Origin: Ginglymostoma cirratum
Taxonomy: Eukaryota
Reading direction: 5' to 3'
Assembly (NCBI GenBank): GCA_024137785.1
Contig: JAHRHZ010000016.1
Location: 36,043,543-36,107,542 of the forward strand
DNA: 64,000 nucleotides
This document shows positions 10,496 to 63,764 of this stretch, one piece after another. The notes below the pieces were generated by a model. The model did not search any database, was not told the origin of the DNA, and worked only from the letters and a program-made list of their open reading frames with translations. Every line of letters starts with the position of its first letter. The stretch's first letter is position 1. Both the position numbers and the translations under genes were made by a program.

Positions 10496-11780
10496 ACAAA
10501 AACAGAAATTGCTAGAAAATCTCAGCAGGTCTGGCAGCATCTGTGGAGAGAAATCAGAGTTAACATTTTGGTTCCAGTGACCCTTCTTCAGAACTGATGG
10601 CAGCTAAGAAAAAGTTGTTTTTTACTCTACAGAAGACAGGGTGGGGGAAGGAGGGAAGAAGTAAACGATAGGTGGCGATAGAGCCCAGAGAGAGAGAAGA
10701 ACAGTTGGAGAGAAAAAGGAGTGGATAACGGTTAGTCCAGGAGAATGAACGGCTACTAATAGGGCTATTAGTGGCTAACAATGGGTTGCGTGTAATAGAC
10801 CATGTGATAACAAGACCTGATGTGTGGGGGTTGGGGTAAGGACATAGGAGGAGATGCTTCAGGCCTTAAAATTGTTGAACTTGATACTGAGTCTAGAAGG
10901 CTGTAGAGTTCCCAAGCAGGAAATGAGGTGTCGTTCTTCCACCCTGCGCTGAGCTTCACTGGAGCTCTGTAGGAAGTCTGAGACAGAGATGTTGGCCAGG
11001 GAACAAGGTGGCATGTCGAAGTGACAGGCAACTGGAAACTCAGGGTCTTTTTTGCCAACAGAAAACAGATGTTCTGCGAAGTGGTCATCCTGTCTACACT
11101 TCATTCCCCCAATGTAGAGGTGACCACATTGTAAATCGCGAATGCAGTAGACTACATTGTGTGAAGTGCAAGTAAAGTGCTGCTTCACCTGGAAGGTATG
11201 TTTGGGCCCTGGATACTGAGGAGGGAGGAAGTGAATGGGCAGGTGTGACACCTTCTTTTTCAGGGGAAGGATCTCTGGGGCTGTGGCAGTTGTTGGGAGG
11301 GAAGGAGGAATGGACCAGGGTGTCCTGGAGGAAACAGTCCTTGCGGAAGGCTGACAAGGGAGGGGAGGGATTATGTGCCTGGTGATGGCATCCTGTTGGA
11401 CGTGGCAGAAATAGCAGCTAATGATTCTCTGGATGTGGATCCTGGTGGGATGGCTGATAAGGACAAGGGGGATACCACCGCTATTGTTGGAGGGAAGAGA
11501 GATAGTGAGGGCTGAAGTGCAGGAGATGGTCCAACTCGCCTGAGGGCCCTATCAACTACAATGCTGGGAAATCCTCGGTTGAGGAAGCAGGTAGACATTT
11601 AAGAGGCCCAGAAGCTGGCATCATCAGAACAGATGCGATGGAAACAGATGAACTGGGAGAATAGAATAGAGTCTTTACAGGAAGTAGGGCATTAGCGTGT
11701 ATACTCAAAGTAACTGTGGGAGTCAGTTTTGGCTTGTAGTAGATATTGGTGGTCAGCCTATTCCCAGAAACGGAAACATG
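10496..11780 (-). mobile_element. 5'-truncated Penelope-like retroelement (RT thumb + GIY-YIG endonuclease + hammerhead-bearing 3' end)
   Basis: ORF 10859-11251 NVVYCIR…CGHLYIG…HFAEHL…PVACHF (GIY-YIG); FLNRGFP and NIYYKP.TDSHSY motifs; TSD ttgaacaagaatagta (10480-10495) / ttgaaggagaatagta (11781-11796). Confidence 0.9.
10552..10598 (-). ncRNA. Decayed minimal hammerhead ribozyme at the Penelope 3' end
   Basis: Minus strand: aucaguu-CUGAAGA-A-GGGUC-ACUG-GAACC-AAAAU-GUU-aacucugau; GAAAC has become AAAAU, consistent with CpG decay. Confidence 0.65.
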
Positions 11781-21963: not shown

Positions 21964-22191
21964 TTCAGTCACAATGTTTCTCCAAATGCTATGACCAAAA
22001 CAATCCTTTCGTAATGCCTTCACTAAGCCAGTGGGAAAGCTCCAACAGACTTTCAACAGGTAAATTTCTGATCAGTGCTTTTCTCAAATTTTCATCAAAT
22101 TCTACTATCAACAGTTTGCCTTTTGATTTTCCTACGTTGGGTTACACATAATTAATTATTGCAATTTTGTTAAAAATATTTTCACAAGTAA

Positions 22192-22423
22192 TGAAAATAG
22201 AAGTTGCTGGAAAAGTTCGGCAGGTTTGGCAGTATCTGTGAAGAGAAATCAGAGTTAATGTTTAGGGTCCAGTGACCCTTCCACAGAACTGTTCTGTGAA
22301 GGGTCACTGAACCTGAAACGTTAACTCTGATTTCTCTACACAGATGCTGCGAGACATGCTAAGCTTTTCCAGCAACTTCTGTTTTTGTTTCTGATTTACA
22401 GCATTTGCAGTTCTTTTGGTTTT
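22192..22423 (+). mobile_element. Penelope-derived fold-back element, family A
   Basis: About 95 bp inverted arms centred near 22290; TSD tattttcacaagtaa (22177-22191) / tattttcccaagtaa (22424-22438); arms match 10496-10595. Confidence 0.9.
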
Positions 22424-24778: not shown

Positions 24779-25023
24779 AAATAAAAACCGAAAAAACTGC
24801 TGATGCTGTAAATCAGGAACAAAAACAAAGTAGCTGGAAAGCCTCAGCAGGTCTGGCAGCATCTGTGCAGAAAAAATCAGAGTTAACATTTCGGGTCCAG
24901 CGACCCTTCCTAAGAACTCTGTTCTGTTCTGAGGAAAGGTCAGTGGACCCAAAACATTAACTCTGATTTTTCTTCACAGGTGCTGCCGGACCTGCTGAGC
25001 TTTTCCATCAACGTTGTTTTTTT
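24779..25023 (-). mobile_element. Penelope-derived fold-back element, family A
   Basis: Inverted arms around 24915; TSD tcatttttaggcat (24765-24778) / tcacgtttaggcat (25024-25037); decayed hammerhead cores. Confidence 0.9.
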
Positions 25024-25120
25024 TCACGTTTAGGCATGCCTAGTACTGTTCCTAGCATGCCCTCCTGCGCTCTTCATTGAACCACAGTTGATCTGCTGGG
25101 TTGATGGAAATCATGGAGCG

Positions 25121-28987: not shown

Positions 28988-29643
28988 TTGCTGCTCATTT
29001 CCTCCATGTCTACCTTTCCTTAATCTAAATGTATTTATGTTTTAAAAGGAGCCAAATTAACCAGGTTTCCTCCAATTTAATTAAAGTAAGTAGGTAAATG
29101 AGAGAAGGTAATAAAATGTGACACACAGATTAGAAATATGAATTGAGTAAAAATCACAGTTGGTTAATAGGCTGTTGTCATGTTTCCTTCTTGATGGTGA
29201 CATAACTGGCTTGTCTGGCTTCCAGGCCTCAGACTAAGAATCTTCCTAGGGCGTCTAATAGCTGTCCCCAAGCTATGACCTTCATATAGCACTAGCAAGC
29301 ACTTCAGCCATTCATACCTTCAGGCCATGGGTAGAAGTTGCTTTTAACTCTGGTCTTTTTGTACATTACTGGTTGGGGCATAATCCGTAGGAAGTAATTT
29401 TCTGCTAAGTGTAGTCAACCCCTCATTAAATCTGTCTCCACAGCAGATCACAGACCAGTTTGTTTTAGCTTATCTGTTTTAAGTCCTTTTAACACCCTCA
29501 GATGTGACATTCCATTATTCCTCTGCAGACTTTGTTCCTCTTAAATAAAAACCAAAAAAACTGTGGATGCTGTAAATCAGGAACAAAAACAAAGTTACTG
29601 GAAAAGCTCAGCAGGCCTGGCAGCATCTGTGGAGTAGAAAACA

Positions 29644-29683
29644 GAGTTAACGTTTCGGGTCCGGTGACCCTTCCTCAGAACTC
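29644..29683 (-). ncRNA. Minimal type I hammerhead ribozyme, intact core
   Basis: Minus strand gaguu-CUGAGGA-A-GGGUC-ACCG-GACCC-GAAAC-GUU-aacuc: 5 bp stem I, 5 bp stem II, palindromic ACGU in place of stem III. Confidence 0.8.
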
Positions 29684-29688
29684 AGGAA

Positions 29689-29728
29689 GGGTTCTGAGGA
29701 AGGGTCACTGGACCTGAAACGTTAACTC
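29689..29728 (+). ncRNA. Minimal type I hammerhead ribozyme, intact core
   Basis: ggguu-CUGAGGA-A-GGGUC-ACUG-GACCU-GAAAC-GUU-aacuc; predicted cleavage after 29723. Confidence 0.75.
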
Positions 29729-30207
29729 TGTTTTCTCCTCCACAGATGCTGCCAGCCTGCTGAGCTTTTCCAGCAACTTTGTTTTAGTTCCTCTTAGACA
29801 GTCACTGAATTTACATCCTTTTAAAGTCTGCTCACTGTTCTGCACTTAAGTTGGACTTCAAGTTTGCAAGTATTTCTACATTAGTTAGCTCACCAATGGC
29901 TTTACTTCATCAGGTTGACGTGACACAGCCTTTGCTTTGGACTGTGGTCTTGGGTCTCGGTTAGATAGTTTACTCCCTGAAATCCTTTGTTGCTCTGTGC
30001 AGGCCACTAAACCAGGCTTTTAAATGTTTGACTGGTATTGGTAGGTGAATTAACCCATGGTCTCTTGGCTGAGAGGTTTCAATCATGACACGTTCACCTG
30101 ATTTTTCATAGCTGCCTTGGAAATTTTCAAGTGCTCTCAAGCTATTTCACAGACTCTCATGAATTGCTCCCAGGATGCTTGTTAGTCTAACATAGAGACT
30201 TTGTAGA

Positions 30208-30294
30208 CAACAGTGTGGAGCTGGAAGAACACAGCAGGCCAGGCTGCATCAGAAGAGAAGGAAAGTTGATGTTTCAGGTCGGGACCCTTCTTCA
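30208..30294 (-). mobile_element. Family C single arm
   Basis: cagtgtggagctggaagaacacagcaggcc…gatgtttcaggtcgggacccttcttca; matches 35975-36062. Confidence 0.75.
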
Positions 30295-33180: not shown

Positions 33181-34090
33181 GTAATACACAATCTCAGGAG
33201 TGCCTTTACGGGATTTGCAGCTGTAGTCAGAGCCATAGCCTGGCTTGCTATATTGTCTGAATTACCCTCATTTTCAACATGGAGTGTATGGGCTGCAATA
33301 AATCTCACTGGTTTTCACAGTAGTTTCATCTCACTGGGTTTTACAGTAGTTTCCAGTTGGCACAGACACATTCCACCATTTGGCAGCTACATCAGACACG
33401 CTTCTTGATCTCACTTTTCATCTCAGCACCACTCTTTCTATCCTAATGAGGGCTCCCAGAATTTCCTTCTCTCATGGGTGTTAGTTTTTATGTTTGCCTC
33501 TCTAGCTGAATCTTTTCCAATGTGAGAGCCTGCCTTGCCCCTGTCACTCTGTATTCCTCCAGATGTGTTCTTATGGTGAAGGGGATGGAGTTTTTGAACT
33601 CCTTCAGAATATTACTTCACAAAGTTCTGCCGGTTGGCTTCTGTTTTAAATGCCAGTACCCATTTGTCAAAAGCAGGCTATTCAAGCCTGTTGAGTTCCA
33701 GACATCTCTGCTCAGGCCATTTCCTGGGGGCATGTGTCTCACGCTAACTGGTATGTGCTTAATATAGTTATTTTTGCAGCCTCGTAGTAAACAGCACTGT
33801 CCTCTGGCAAGATATAACAAACTTTGTGAGCTTTCCCTGAAAATTTACTCTGAAGTGGTAAGGCCCAATGCTGGACTGGAACCTAACTCTCATAGATACT
33901 AGGAGCAGAGGAAGGCCATTTGACTCTTCAAACTTGCTCCTCTGTTCAATATGATCGTGGCTGATCATTCATCACAACACCATATTCTTGGTGAGAGATA
34001 AAAGGTACTGCAGATGCTGGAGAATCCGAGATAACAAGCATGGGGCTGGATGAACACAGCAGGTCAAGCAGCATCATAGGAGCAGGAAAA

Positions 34091-34124
34091 CTTGACGTTT
34101 CGGTCCTAAACCCTTCATCAGAAA
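34091..34124 (-). ncRNA. Minimal hammerhead ribozyme (one stem II mismatch)
   Basis: uuu-CUGAUGA-A-GGGUUUAGGACC-GAAAC-GUC-aag. Confidence 0.7.
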
Positions 34125-34138
34125 ATGAATCACAAAAT

Positions 34139-34172
34139 TTTCTGATGAAGGGTTTAGGCCCGAAACGTCAAG
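34139..34172 (+). ncRNA. Minimal type I hammerhead ribozyme, intact core
   Basis: uuu-CUGAUGA-A-GGGU-UUAG-GCCC-GAAAC-GUC-aag; predicted cleavage after C34169. Confidence 0.82.
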
Positions 34173-35216
34173 TTTTCCTGCTCCTATGATGCTGCTTGAC
34201 CTGCTGTGTTCATCCAGCCCCATGCTTGTTATCACCATATTCTTGGTTTCTCTCCATATCCCTCGATGCCATTAAAACCTAAAAATGTATCTCTTTCTTG
34301 AATATATTCAGTGACTTGGCCTTCTATGGTAGCAAACTCAACAGGTTCAGCACCTCTAAGTGAAGAAATTTTTCTTCACTTCAGTCCTAAATGGTCTATC
34401 CCATATCCTGAGACTGTGACCCTGGTTCTAGACTTGCCCAACGGGGCAACATCCTTCCTGCATCTAGTCTGTTTAGCCCTGTTAGAATGTTACATGTTTC
34501 AATCGATCCCCTCTCATTCTTCTAAATTCAAATGAAATCAGGCTCAGCTGAACCAATCCCTCCACATAAACGGTCCTGCCATTCCCACTGTTAGTCGAGT
34601 GAACCTCTGCTGCATTCCCTCTCCAATAAGCATATCCTCTTTCAGGTAGAGGGATCAAAATTACACACATTATTCCAGGTACAGTCTCACTGAGTCTCTG
34701 TATAACTGCTGTAAGACATCCCCACTTCTAAACTCTAAATCCTCTTGCAATAGAGTATAACATATCAGTTGTTTTCCTAATTGATTGATACGCCTGCCTG
34801 TTTACTTTCATCGACTAGTGTACATGGAAACCCAGATCCCTTTTTACATCACATTTCCCAACATATCACCATTTAAATAAAACTCTGCATTTTGATTTTT
34901 CACACCGAAGTGTACAACTTCATGTTAACTACGTTATACAGCATCTGCCATGTATTGGCCACACACTCACCATGCACTTTTTTTTGCTTGCTCATGGTTG
35001 CGTGCCCTCTATTTGCCATTTCTGTGCATTTTTGGCAGTGCTGTCTCCATTGTAGCTAATAGAAAAACTTTGCACAGAATGTGCGTTGTATGCACAAATA
35101 AGAACATGACAATAGGAATGGAGTAGACCAAAACTGTCTTCCAAGCCTCCTCCATCATTCAATTTGGCCACAGTTAATCATCAGCCTTAATTCCACTTAC
35201 CCATTCATTTCCCTTA

Positions 35217-37905
35217 TTCATAGAGTAATACAGCAAGGAAACAGGCCCTTCAGCCCAAACTGGTCCATGCTGACCTTGTGCCCACTCAGCTAGTTCCAAT
35301 TGCCTGCATTTGGTCCATATCCTCCTAAACACTTCCCATCCGTATCCCTATCCAAACGTTTTTAAAATGTTGCTATTGTACCTGCCTCAACCGCTTTCTC
35401 CGGCAGCCCATTCCATATACGCACCAATCTCTGTGTGAAGAAGTTGCCCCTCAGGTCCTTCTTAAAACTTTCCCCTCTCACCTTAAACCTATGCCCTCTT
35501 GTTTTCAATTCCCCATCCCTGGGAAATATGCATTCATCCTATCTATGCCCCTCATGAATTTATACATGCTACTAAAGTCACCCATCATTCTCCTAAGTTC
35601 CAAGCAATAAAGTCCTATCCTGGCCAACTTCTCCCTATAACTCAGGCCTACTAGTCCTGGCAACATCCTCATAAATCTTCTTCACACTTTCCAGTTTAAC
35701 TATGTCTTTCCTATAACAGGGTGACCAAAACTGTACACAATACTCCAAGTACGGTCTCATCAACAACGTATACAACTGGAACATAATGTCCCAACTTCTG
35801 TACTGAATGCCTCGACAAATGAAGGCCAGTATGCTAAATGCCTTCTTCACCAACCTGCCCACCTGTGATGCTACTCTCAACGAACTATGTACTTGTACTC
35901 CTAGGTCCCTCTGTTCCACAATGCTCTTCAGGACCTTCTCAGAGATAGTAAGAACTGTAGACGCTGGAGTCAGAGATAACACAGTGTGGAGCTGGAGGAA
36001 TACAGCAGGTCAGACAGCATCAGAGCAGCAGGAAAGCTGACGTTTCGAGTTGGGACCCTTCTGAAGACCCGAAATGTCAGCTTTCCTGTTCCTCAGATGC
36101 TGCCTGACCTGCTGTGTTCCTCCAGCTCCACACTGTGTTAACTCTTCAGGACGTTACCATTCACAGTGTAAGTCCTACCTTGGTTTGACTTTCCAAAGTG
36201 CAACACCTCACACTTATCTGTATTGAAATGCATTTGCCAATTCTCAGCCCACTTCCCCATCTAATTAAGAGCTCTCTGTAATTTTTGATAACATTCCTCG
36301 CTATCAATGACATCTCTTAATTTTGTATCATCTGCAAATTTACTAATCATGCCTTGTACATTCACATCCAGATCATTTATGTAAATAACAAGTAATAAAG
36401 GTCCTAGCACTGACCCCTGTGGTACATCACTGGTCACAGGCCTCCAGTGTGAGAAACAATCATCAACCATCACCCTCTGTTTCCTACCATCGAGGTAATT
36501 TTGAATATAATTAGCTAGCTCTCCCTTGATCCTATGCAACCTCACCTTCAAGACTAGCCTGCAATGCGGGACCTTGTCAAAGGCCTTACTAAAGTCCATA
36601 TTGATAACATCCACTGCCCTACCCTCATCTATCCCTTTAGTTACCTCTTCAAAAAACTCCAAAAGTTTTGTCAGACATGTTCCCGCACACAAATCCGTGC
36701 TGACTATCTCTAATCAGACCTTGACTATCCAAATGTTGGTTGATCCTGTCCCTCAGTATTCTCTCCAATATCTTGCCTTTCACTGATGTCAGGCTCACTG
36801 GCCTGTAGCTTCCTGGCTTGTCTTTGCTACCTTTCATAAACAACGGAACAACATTAGCCACCCTCCAGTCTTCTGGAACTTCACCAGTGGCATAAAATGA
36901 AGCAAAAATCTCTGCAAGGCCCTCTGAAATTTCTTCCCTAGCCTCCCAAAATGTCTGAGGATGGTCTTGATCAGGCCCAGGGGATTTATCCACCTTAATG
37001 CACTTTAAGGCTACAAACACCTCCTCTCTGACAATATGTATGCGGTTCAAAACATTCCCACTTGTTTCCCTTATTTCCTTAGCATCCATTATTCTCTCCT
37101 CCAGTAAACACTGAGGAGAAATATTCATTAAAAATCTCCCCCATCTCCTATGGCTCCACAAATAGATGGCCACGCTGACCTTTAAGGGGACCTATTCTCT
37201 CCCTAGCCACCCTCTCACTCTTAATATAGCTATAGAACCTTTTGGAATTATCTTTAATCTTATCTGCCAAATCCATCTCATTTCGTCCTTTTGGCTTCTC
37301 ATTTCCCTCCTAAGAGTGCGCCTGTACTTTTATTAGTCATCCAGGGACTCACTTAAACCCAATAGCTTAAACGCAATGTATGCCTTCTTGTTTTTCCTGA
37401 CCAGAGCCTCAAAATCTGTCGTCAGCCAAGGATCCCTAAACGTGCCAGCTTTACCCTTCACCCTAACAGGGACATACTTTCCTTGGACTCTTGATAACAC
37501 ACTTTTAAAAGCCTCCCATTTGCCAGTCATTCCTTTTCCTTCAAATGCACTCACGCAATCGACCGCTGCTAGATCCTGTCTAATGGTCCCAAATTAGCCT
37601 TGCTCCTGTTCAGGACCTTAACATGTGGACGTGTTCTATCTTTTTCCCTAACTATGTTAAAACTAAGAAAGCTGTGGTCATTGGACCCAAAATGCTCTCT
37701 GACTGATACTTCAGTCACTTGTCCAACCTCATTTCCTAAGAGGAGGTCCAGTGTTGCACCCTCCCAAGTACAGCCCTCTACATACTGATTTAGGAAACTT
37801 GTTTGAACACATGTGAGAAATTCCACCCCGTCCAAGCCTTTTACACGCTGGGTGGCCCAGTCAATACACAGGAAATTAAAATCTCCAACAAATATTACTC
37901 TGTTA
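35217..37905 (-). mobile_element. CR1 LINE 1, 3' part (ORF2)
   Basis: VDKSPGPD, YRPVSLTS, DFSKAFDKVPH, VPQGSVLGP, KFADDTKL, LEYCVQFWSP. Confidence 0.92.
35938..36141 (-). mobile_element. Fold-back element, family C, centre partly deleted
   Basis: Inverted arms around 36060; TSD ctcttcaggacctt (35924-35937) / ctcttcaggacgtt (36142-36155); interrupts CR1 ORF2. Confidence 0.9.
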
Positions 37906-45618: not shown

Positions 45619-45677
45619 ACACCAAAATAACCTGATAAAAATGTCAATAAATCAAAAGACACACCCGATTTCCATCA

Positions 45678-45800
45678 GAGATAAAAGGTACTGCAGATGC
45701 TGGAGAATCCGAGATAACAAGCATGGGGCTGGATGAACACAGCAGGTCAAGCAACATCATAGGAGCAGGAAAACTTGATGTTTCAGGCCTAAACCCTTCT
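45678..45800 (-). mobile_element. Family B single arm, truncated inside the hammerhead
   Basis: Near-identical to 33995-34116. Confidence 0.9.
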
Positions 45801-48807: not shown

Positions 48808-48905
48808 GAGATAACACAGTGTGGAACTGGAGGAACACAGCAGGCCAGGCAGCATCAGAGGAACAGGAAGGTTGCCGTTTCGGGTTGGGACCTTTCTTCA
48901 GAAAA
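48808..48905 (-). mobile_element. Family C single arm with near-intact hammerhead
   Basis: Minus strand CUGAAGA-A-AGGUCCCAACCC-GAAAC-GGC (cleavage triplet mutated). Confidence 0.8.
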
Positions 48906-51317: not shown

Positions 51318-51525
51318 AATGGGAGTGCCGGCGTTGGAATGGAGTTGGCAAAGTCAGAAGTCACATGACACCAGGTTATAGTCCAATAGGTTTATTTGAA
51401 ATCACAAGCTTTCAGAGCACTGCTGCTTCGTTAGGTGACCTGACAAAGGGGCTATGCTCCAAAAGCTTGTGATTTCAAATAAATCTGCTGGGCTACACGC
51501 TGGTGTCATGTGACTTCTGACTTTA
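51318..51525 (-). mobile_element. Fold-back element, family E (AGCU-type hammerhead)
   Basis: Arms 51350-51436 / 51438-51524; TSD tccagttctct (51307-51317) / tccagttccct (51526-51536); arm consensus cac-CUGACGA-A-GGAGC-AGU-GCUCC-GAAAG-CUU-gug. Confidence 0.85.
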
Positions 51526-57386: not shown

Positions 57387-57556
57387 AAAAACTGAAAGAA
57401 CTGCGGATGCTGTAAATCAGGAACAAAAACAAAGTTGCTGGAAAAGCTCAGCAGGTTTGGCAGCATCTGTGAAGGAAGAAACAGAGCTAACGTTTCAGGT
57501 CCAGTGACCCTCAGCAAGACCTGCTGAGCTTTTCCAGCAACTTTGTTTTTGTTCCT
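57387..57556 (-). mobile_element. Fold-back element, family A, centre deleted
   Basis: Perfect 15 bp TSD gaaatgatactgaat (57372-57386 / 57557-57571); long arm joins a short inverted arm at about 57515. Confidence 0.9.
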
Positions 57557-57944
57557 GAAATGATACTGAATTCTGTAAGGCGGGTGAATGGAATGTCTTC
57601 TATGCAATGTGACAGAATTTCAAACCTCTTGAAAATAAAGCAACATACCTTGGTATAAATATGCTCCTCTATTTTATCCTGGATTAACATTTCTTCCAAT
57701 TGTATGCTCTTGACACGGAGGAAGTTGTGTTCTGCCAGCTCACTGAGCTTTTTGACACAGGCAGTACATATGGAAGGTTGATGCATGCTGGTTTCCATGA
57801 CCTAAAAAAGGGCAGCAGTGAGCACAAAGCAAAACTTTTTTTTTCCCCATCACCTTCTCAATATGCTGATTCTTTCTGGGTCACGGCTCCTCAAGCACTA
57901 ACAGCCTTCCAGTACCTCACACAAATTATTTTTATCCAGTGTAT

Positions 57945-61672: not shown

Positions 61673-61760
61673 AGATAACAAGGTGTAGAGCTGGATGAAC
61701 ACAGCAGGCCAAGCAGCATTCGAGGAGCAGGAAAGCTGATGCTTCGGGTCTAGACCTTTC
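61673..61760 (-). mobile_element. Family D single arm (related to B/C)
   Basis: gataacaaggtgtagagctggatgaacacagcaggccaagcagcat…gatgcttcgggtctagacc. Confidence 0.8.
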
Positions 61761-62610
61761 CCCAGAAGGTACTATGTAATTTTTTTTACTCAATCGTTGT
61801 CTTCAGTTGTACTTCCTGTGTCCTGACTTAGCGTGATTTGTTCAGTCAGTCAGCTATGTTATGCCCAGTAACATCTTTAAGCACAGAATCCATGCAATGT
61901 GTGCATGTGTTGGAGGATTGTGAAGAGCAGACTGACACGTGGAGTTGAGGTGAAGATGAGATCAGCCCTAATCATGTCAAATAACAGTGCAAGCTCGAGT
62001 GGCTAGATTGCCTACTCCTGCTCCTATTTCTTATGTCTAATATTATAACCATATAAATAGAGTCATAAATAAACTTCAAGATATCTGTCTTCGTAAGAAC
62101 ACACGTCTCTTTGGTATGTGTTACAGAAACCAAAATACATTTAAAAATACAGCAAATGACATCAATCCCAATCACTTTTTCCCCCAATTCCCACTTACTT
62201 CAATTTTGCTAAGGAATTCAATTGCTGTTTTGATGTCATGGGCAACCAGTCAGCTCACCTCTGGAGCTCAAATTTTTGTCCATTTTCAGGCCAAACATAA
62301 ACTGACCATCAATTAACAGACTATTGACGAGCAAATGTCATTTATTAGCACTGTCAACAACATAGTGACAGAATGTTATCAAGTGAAAATTGTCTCTAAA
62401 GCAATCAGATATCAGAAAATTTTTCTCTATGCATTTAGAGTATGGAGTTCTATGTCACAGAAAGTATTTGAGGCAGTAACACATTGAAATCTTTAAAAGA
62501 AACATGGATAAGTATACAAATGAGGGAAAAAGCTATGGTTAGAGAAAAAGATAGCTGGTTCAGCTTTGGATTATTTTGGCAAAATGCTGGCAAAAACATG
62601 AAGGGTTCCA

Positions 62611-62708
62611 TTTTCTGAAGAAGGGTCTAGGCCCGAAACATCAGCCTTCCTGCTCCTCTGATGCTGCTTGGCCTGCTGTGTTCATCAAGCTCTACACCTT
62701 GTTATCTC
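62611..62708 (+). mobile_element. Family D single arm with near-intact hammerhead
   Basis: uuu-CUGAAGA-A-GGGUCUAGGCCC-GAAAC-AUC (ACGU changed to ACAU, consistent with CpG decay). Confidence 0.82.
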
Positions 62709-62757
62709 AAGGGTTGCAGATCCTCACTTTGTGCTACAAAATCTTAATTTGTTGCCT

Positions 62758-63280
62758 AGATAACAAGCATGGGGCTGGATGAACACAGCAGGTCAAGCAG
62801 CATCATAGGAGCANNNNNNNNNNNNNNNNNNNNNNNNNNNNNNNNNNNNNNNNNNNNNNNNNNNNNNNNNNNNNNNNNNNNNNNNNNNNNNNNNNNNNNN
62901 NNNNNNNNNNNNNNNNNNNNNNNNNNNNNNNNNNNNNNNNNNNNNNNNNNNNNNNNNNNNNNNNNNNNNNNNNNNNNNNNNNNNNNNNNNNNNNNNNNNN
63001 NNNNNNNNNNNNNNNNNNNNNNNNNNNNNNNNNNNNNNNNNNNNNNNNNNNNNNNNNNNNNNNNNNNNNNNNNNNNNNNNNNNNNNNNNNNNNNNNNNNN
63101 NNNNNNNNNNNNNNNNNNNNNNNNNNNNNNNNNNNNNNNNNNNNNNNNNNNNNNNNNNNNNNNNNNNNNNNNNNNNNNNNNNNNNNNNNNNNNNNNNNNN
63201 NNNNNNNNNNNNNCCTGCTGTGTTCATCCAGCCCCATGCTTGTTATCTCGGATTCTCCAGCATCTGCAGTACCTTTTATC
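62758..63280 (+). mobile_element. Fold-back element, family B, spanning the assembly gap
   Basis: Both flanks match the 33993 copy in inverted orientation; TSD tcttaatttgttgcct (62742-62757 / 63281-63296). Confidence 0.9.
62814..63213. other. Assembly gap (400 N)
   Basis: Run of N. Confidence 1.
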
Positions 63281-63764
63281 TCTTAATTTGTTGCCTTATG
63301 ATTTTTAATCTTGTAAAATGCTTTATCCCACGAAAAGGACAATGGATAACTGGAATGCAGATCATTGAGGTTCTGAGTGTAATGTTCTTTTTTCACTTCA
63401 TCCAGTTTTTTTCCAACATTTTGTGATTTAAACTGAACATTGAGTTGTTCCTCTAGCCACATTAAAAAACCGATTTACTGCTTGAATGTCATCGTACGGC
63501 CTCATATCACTTTCAAACTCTATTACACTTTAATTAAATTAAATATTGCTTATTTTTCAGAATGAATGTCATTCCCACCAATAAGGAAAACTTTACCTTG
63601 GCTTTACGTGTCCAGCTTCAAATAATCAAAAGTATAATTCACAGAATCTCTTGTTCTATGTGATGATTTAGCAGAGTTAAATCTAAATCTAGGGCATTAA
63701 AATTTAATATTAGCCCCACACCTCTACTCCAAGGGTTGAGAGGGAGAAACAAAATTAAAATTTC

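Follow-up and report, generated by a model that had tools for sequence, protein, structure and literature searches.

A hairpin with a hammerhead motif on each strand in Ginglymostoma cirratum is a short inverted insertion of a Penelope-like retrotransposon end

How does a nearly perfect hairpin that carries a hammerhead motif on each strand arise, and does the pair of motifs matter? Such a hairpin lies in the window analyzed here, a 64,000-nucleotide stretch of the Ginglymostoma cirratum genome (assembly GCA_024137785.1, contig JAHRHZ010000016.1, positions 36,043,543 to 36,107,542 of the forward strand), along which all coordinates below are counted. The initial annotation had reported 97-nt arms with one mismatch and a perfect 15-bp target site duplication (TSD), and the coordinates bear it out. 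The two TSD copies, read on the plus strand, form an exact direct repeat at 33978-33992 and 34233-34247. The insert proper occupies the 240 bases from 33993 to 34232. It starts with a 37-nt unpaired Penelope "tail" on the minus strand (33993-34029), which would lie between two start sites of reverse transcription. The left arm (34030-34126, 97 nt) is an element end with its sense on the minus strand; its truncation point is the 5' edge of hammerhead stem I, and it has an extra-A end. After a 10-nt junction that forms the loop (34127-34136), the right arm (34137-34233, 97 nt) provides a second copy of the element end, with its sense on the plus strand and without a tail; base 34233 is common to this arm and the TSD. 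The arms are 99% complementary, with a single mismatch at 34104/34159. This junction is peculiar to the copy; its first bases look like a snap-back of the adjoining arm, and it is presumably an end-joining scar. The predicted RNA fold of the hairpin reaches -191.8 kcal/mol (z = -28), a stability matched by none of 200 shuffled sequences. The hairpin can thus be explained as the end of an autonomous Penelope-like retrotransposon, inserted as a short inverted copy; what the data demonstrate of this explanation is the parentage, the architecture, the copy number and the TSD.

Longer copies of the family extend upstream into a C-rich untranslated region and then into a reading frame. This frame encodes reverse transcriptase (RT), a C-x4-C-x2-C linker (read by eye) and, at the C-terminal end, a GIY-YIG domain, all within one open reading frame (ORF); Pfam, applied to an 886-residue part, returned RVT_1 (9e-8) and GIY-YIG (6e-5), both above the cut-off. 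At loci L191 and L192, the open frame extends over 1,049 codons and belongs to a 3.5-kb unit that is preceded upstream by a truncated repeat. The family combines an ORF containing RT and GIY-YIG, direct and inverted pseudo-LTRs (pLTRs), partial tandems, a tail and a TSD, and, judged by its sequence, the parent is an autonomous endonuclease-bearing Penelope-like element. The tail occurs on one end only and, at 37 nt, falls within the 30-40 bp Penelope range. An inverted truncated copy with a tail of 30-40 bp is common in Penelope insertions, according to the accessible text of two papers (PMC8557442, PMC3846280). A CX2-5CxxC linker between RT and endonuclease is described for the Neptune (or Nematis) clade in the accessible part of the former (PMC8557442), and the linker found here points to a Neptune or Nematis type. 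A 229-codon frame at 10859-11548 (minus strand) looks, by eye, like the linker plus GIY-YIG end of a different, diverged Penelope family.

The copy has many relatives in the genome. In the 4.36-Gb genome, a 49-nt tail probe has 20,963 exact matches, and there are at least 5,093 hairpin centers of one tight pattern, as opposed to 6 for the control. About 10 other places in the 64-kb window carry related pieces. All 30 loci collected by similarity search (the query locus, one duplicated place and 28 others) had the order tail, arm, junction, arm; their TSDs were mostly 12-17 bp long and the junction was different in nearly every copy. The hairpin had been singled out as the best preserved. This is true among gap-free copies in the window but not beyond it, where the copy is in no way special: in addition to the thousands of hairpin centers, 7 of 34 sampled hairpins were free of mismatches, the sample being those with at least 80 comparable positions, and 28 of the 54 collected pairs having been chosen for likeness to the 33993-34232 copy. 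Runs of N cut 34 of 91 consecutive young copies among the matches listed; they look like assembly gaps at palindromes. One young copy of the same family in the window, with a tail and TSD-like flanks, is likewise broken by an N run (62755-63283). Copies that consist of one arm and stop within or at the hammerhead core lie at 45677-45799, 48808-48905, 61673-61767, 62609-62708 and 30216-30294. An older asymmetric hairpin of a related subfamily, with a tail and TSD-like flanks, occupies 35941-36145, and hairpins of a second, older Penelope family, in which stem I is different and its pairing kept, are found at 29570-29801, 24817-25025 and 57417-57558.

The description of the locus as a double hammerhead stands in part: the core is present on both strands, but the minus-strand mirror is not intact. 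The plus-strand motif (34139-34172; C3 at 34142, C17 at 34169) has the extra A, the palindrome ACGU, a 4-bp stem II and a 3-bp stem I, with cleavage predicted after 34169; an extra base shifts the register of stem I in this copy, giving 3 bp where the parent has 4. In the minus-strand motif (34091-34124; C3 at 34121, C17 at 34094), the mismatch at 34104 places G opposite A and breaks stem II. An imposed hammerhead fold gave -2.6 kcal/mol for the plus arm versus +4.4 for the minus arm. Stems I and II can form in the plus arm, yet the hammerhead is not that arm's lowest-energy fold. A G-to-T change in stem II on the tail arm only was seen in L026, L030 and at window position 34104, two of these three copies having been picked for likeness to the 33993-34232 copy, so that the coincidence may be a selection effect.

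The loose core motif is weak evidence when taken alone, as 7 of 100 shuffles gave two matches, and the two matches here are not independent, being the two arms. Rfam returned no hammerhead family at the gathering score or at E values up to 10; its miRNA matches were sub-threshold and reflect the hairpin shape, and a miRNA identity was rejected. The features of a minimal type I hammerhead are nevertheless present, namely, the conserved core, an extra nucleotide after A9, G10.1-C11.1 and a palindromic 15.2-16.2. Among 261 motif matches in the DNA that was fetched, copies that are not independent of one another, 253 had the extra A and 198 had CG, the sequence of stem I varied between families with its pairing kept, and stem II was at least 4 bp long in 228, versus 5.5% of shuffled sequences. 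According to the initial annotation, the extra A is tolerated in the hammerhead of the CChMVd viroid. The extra A and the palindromic ACGU also prove to be published traits of Penelope minimal hammerheads (PMC4209133, accessible text), and the assignment to this type was strengthened by the discovery of a parent element with RT and GIY-YIG.

We consider it probable that the nuclease of the element cut both target strands 15 bases apart and that each cut end primed reverse transcription on one RNA. The staggered nicks would give two 15-nt 3' ends. One of them would prime at the outer start site and produce the tail-bearing arm, and the other would prime about 36 nt further in and produce the tail-less arm. 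Both cDNAs would traverse the uncut hammerhead and run as far as the first base of stem I, which is most likely where the RNA has its 5' end. The two cDNA ends would then be connected through a few bases, templated or not, and gap filling would follow.

Arm ends were mapped in the first 91 of 100 tail matches listed, in family coordinates where position 1 is the outer end of the tail, C3 is 127 and the cut is 99/100. These 91 copies comprised 34 interrupted by N, 30 single arms, 19 inverted copies, 7 inverted copies with a gap and 1 at the edge of its locus. The end statistics omit the N-cut copies and the locus-edge copy, which are probably enriched in perfect hairpins, and the ends, being taken from BLAST, are uncertain by a few bases. 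Second arms ended at positions 29-40 in 13 of the 19 complete inverted copies in this set. A TSD of 11-17 bp flanked 14 of these 19, and one of 11-19 bp flanked 12 of the 30 single-arm copies; a TSD of at least 11 bp was absent in the other 18 of the 30, which counts against the explanation. Many short insertions (L193-L222) have their start within the ORF, 40-270 nt in, which hints that RT can also begin at additional, more dispersed sites downstream of the tail. Long A runs follow the arms in L073 and L199, possibly as a result of untemplated tailing at the cDNA end.

The arms preferentially stop at the 5' edge of the hammerhead. Twenty-one of 56 gap-free first arms (first 91 copies listed) ended at positions 122-134, where the end rate per base at risk was 0.057, compared with 0.0057 before and 0.0028 after this interval. 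The ribozyme cut was rejected as the source of template ends: only 3 of the 56 first arms ended at 96-100, around 99/100, with no clear excess. A spliced 5' end was rejected as well. In Drosophila virilis, an intron ends at helix I; here, the hot spot lacked an AG, and the sequences beyond it shared no continuation. The stop coincides with CC-A-TTTC, an initiator-like sequence. Because of this match, our preferred reading is that the hot spot, located at stem I's first base, is probably the 5' end of the RNA. Across the whole genome, C3 is reached by 40,502 arms; 20,859 of them continue exactly into the C-rich region, and 7,228 have a fourth A. Extra-A ends with a T after them number 3,503, and 13 of these continue, a rarity that suggests run-off at the RNA 5' end. 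The 33993-34232 copy has the extra-A end on both arms.

It is possible, if somewhat doubtful, that priming on both strands is correct but that the hot spot reflects stalling of RT at a folded or protein-bound ribozyme or at the C-rich tract; this alternative rivals only the step concerning the RNA 5' end. Stalling would fit the fact that about half of the arms read through and that a run of C starts at position 132. The breakpoints of a second family (29617-29755, 24872-24971 in the window) speak for stalling too, as they fall at the equivalent place in that family's stem I. A folded structure, however, would be expected to stop RT at its 3' side rather than at its 5' edge, and extra-A ends are nearly missing from read-through copies and are common to both arms, which argues against a stall.

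For the RNA 5' end, the preferred reading, we also examined copies that were primed from the ORF side. There were 1,126 loci with the ORF-start junction, and 28 of 30 sampled ones contained no more than 274 nt of the ORF side (a gap interrupts one of them), which shows that priming at the 5' junction is able to yield short copies. A strict run-off test, which was not discriminating, came out partly against this reading: of 13 ORF-start copies that reached the motif, 7 stopped at 122-132 and 6 read on, and longer RNAs, template jumps or RT stall would each explain the latter. Tentatively, the hairpins may be fossil "strong-stop" products. The RNA would begin at stem I, RT would start internally, near the 5' end, on both nicked strands, and would have to jump to the 3' repeat; failed jumps would leave thousands of head-to-head hairpins. 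If true, this would give Penelope a strand-transfer step like that of LTR elements and would derive tails, inversions and partial tandems from one mechanism.

The strongest competitor to priming on both strands is fold-back, in which a single cDNA halts at the hammerhead edge, snaps back and copies itself. Such self-priming was proposed for Penelope palindromes in rotifers (PMC3846280, accessible text), and it would account for the variants and end type common to both arms and for the snap-back-like bases in junctions. The agreement between arms is indeed close. They had the same state at 224 of 239 subfamily sites (about 146 expected), or at 89 of 100 once the similarity-selected copies were left out, and the same end type, 3-A or 4-A, in 31 of 33, a count that includes one locus counted on both gap sides and one near-duplicate pair. 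This concordance points to one RNA or one source locus for the two arms. Arm lengths are where fold-back fails. Among 26 inverted copies (first 91 listed), the second arm was longer in 19, the first was longer in 3, and the two were equal in 4 (p = 9e-4). Since only the first arm has the tail and only the second has the extension, most inverted copies cannot be fold-back products. Moreover, the second arm has a fixed end near position 36, a property that asymmetric copies share, and the long copy at L192 ends at position 36 without a tail. Fold-back is ruled out only for asymmetric copies; for symmetric hairpins such as 33993-34232, it gives the same product and the same concordance. As a general explanation, we regard it as unlikely.

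Biochemical data bear on the same point. In vitro, a Penelope element of Anolis cuts both strands and extends them, starting at two sites that flank the tail, with uncut RNA as the template (PMC11167929, accessible text). Together, arm asymmetry, concordance and the Anolis biochemistry favor priming on both strands.

There is little to commend the idea that the hairpin is a mobile nonautonomous unit, similar to a MITE or a SINE and copied whole from hairpin parents. Thousands of copies exist and a few junction sequences recur, as this would predict, but the recurring junctions are simple joins of the two end types, junctions are mostly specific to one copy, and arm lengths are continuous with those of long copies.

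The insertion had also been called very recent. In a relative (organism B), 36 differences were found in 593 nt of the left flank, which corresponds to about 6% divergence. With a query made of the flank only, contigs of the relative cross the TSD and continue for 61 letters (two runs), whereas with a query that includes the insert, the same contigs end at 33977 without reaching into the element (three runs). From this, we infer that the insertion site is empty in the relative and that the TSD sequence is single there. The Penelope family is present in the relative, mostly at 90-95% likeness. The claim thus holds as far as it concerns a lineage-specific insertion; recency itself is read from the single mismatch among 97 nt, and the relative provides no more than a bound. 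The target, 33914-33977 and 34236-34600, is an older high-copy repeat with high read depth in all four runs. Elsewhere in the window, several frames between 36261 and 40075 resemble, by eye, LINE reverse-transcriptase fragments, and other long inverted repeats, 83% complementary and unmatched by the Penelope probe, lie at 22187-22392 and 51350-51524.

What becomes of the copy follows from its geometry. As the motifs lie on opposite strands, a single transcript holds one sense motif and its antisense, and no dimer in cis is possible. The expectation that read-through RNA would sequester the ribozyme agrees with folding predictions, in which the pairing probability of stem II is about 1e-16 with 200-nt flanks. 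The double hammerhead is likely a by-product of the insertion, and read-through is predicted to lock both motifs in a 97-bp duplex. That the two motifs matter as a pair, as had been supposed, is contradicted by their opposite strands and by the damage to one of them. Because the motifs are opposed, one is damaged, and read-through is predicted to trap both in a duplex, this copy most likely does nothing beyond serving as a potential source of double-stranded RNA (dsRNA), which, as the initial annotation proposed, could be a substrate of ADAR or Dicer. The left flank attracted 20 reads, all less than 95% alike, in one of two RNA runs and 0 in the other. The Anolis Penelope ribozyme cleaves only with the protein of the element (PMC11167929, accessible text), and so a failure of naked RNA to cleave would argue little against the ribozyme.

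A selected function at the locus, as a regulatory double ribozyme or a small-RNA precursor, is highly improbable: the predicted hairpin is very stable and the plus-strand core is intact, but the hairpin is one of thousands, appears to be absent in the relative, has a damaged minus motif, and sits in an older high-copy repeat. An assembly or library artifact made of chimeric inverted reads can be dismissed, since, although N runs interrupt many hairpin copies, the exact TSD, the one-sided tail, the arm mismatch and the same geometry at many loci speak against it.

The locus is ordinary; the family, however, is a large natural record of Penelope integration, the steps of which after priming are not yet validated (PMC11167929, accessible text). 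The statistics of its junctions distinguish priming on both strands from the self-priming that has been published, agree with an uncut RNA template, and single out one nucleotide as the probable start of the RNA. We found no earlier description of the family-level pattern in the open-access literature, although an earlier account is possible. The open-access pLTR papers found do not mention twin priming, and we found none on a Penelope strong-stop or template jump. Thousands of near-perfect 100-bp hairpins are, in addition, a likely source of dsRNA and of assembly gaps.

Several known systems resemble parts of this picture. In LINE-1 twin priming, two target ends prime on one RNA, and retroviral strong-stop DNA is a short cDNA that ends near the 5' end of the RNA. 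Both are analogies and not memberships: here, the cDNAs overlap almost fully instead of abutting, and there is neither poly(A) nor a tRNA primer.

The closest structural match is with the inverted-pLTR insertions of Penelope, as described in the accessible text of three papers (PMC8557442, PMC3846280, PMC2377424). Shared with them are the inverted 5'-truncated copy, the 30-40 bp tail at one end, the TSD and, in L191 and L192, partial tandems upstream of the ORF. In contrast to them, the whole insertion here consists of two ends (240 bp), in a form that is very abundant, and the ends pile up at the 5' edge of the hammerhead; TSDs are mostly 13-17 bp, as opposed to 8-10 bp in the rotifer examples.

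Mechanistically, the family resembles Poseidon PAc of Anolis carolinensis (PMC11167929, accessible text), in which two internal RT starts bound the tail, both strands are cut and extended, and the RNA template is uncut; the start sites are about 90-125 nt downstream of the hammerhead core in both. The PAc ORF starts inside the hammerhead, whereas the long frame here starts after the tail and has the C-x4-C-x2-C linker. The accessible PAc account offers no model for inverted products or for a hot spot of ends.

The motifs share with the minimal hammerheads of metazoan Penelope elements (PMC4209133, accessible text) the core, the extra nucleotide after A9, G10.1-C11.1, the palindromic 15.2-16.2 and the short stem I. 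In Schistosoma, pairs of motifs on opposite strands are 100-700 bp apart, compared with 20 nt from core to core here, and stem II has 7-8 bp in the Schistosoma families (PMC4209133) versus 4 bp in the putative ribozymes here. Finally, the hairpins are like the non-LTR retrozymes (bioRxiv 10.64898/2026.07.22.740005, accessible text) in being short noncoding DNA derived from Penelope with a type I hammerhead. We rejected membership in that group: non-LTR retrozymes are head-to-tail tandems with motifs on the same strand, whereas the copies described here are head-to-head, with motifs on opposite strands.
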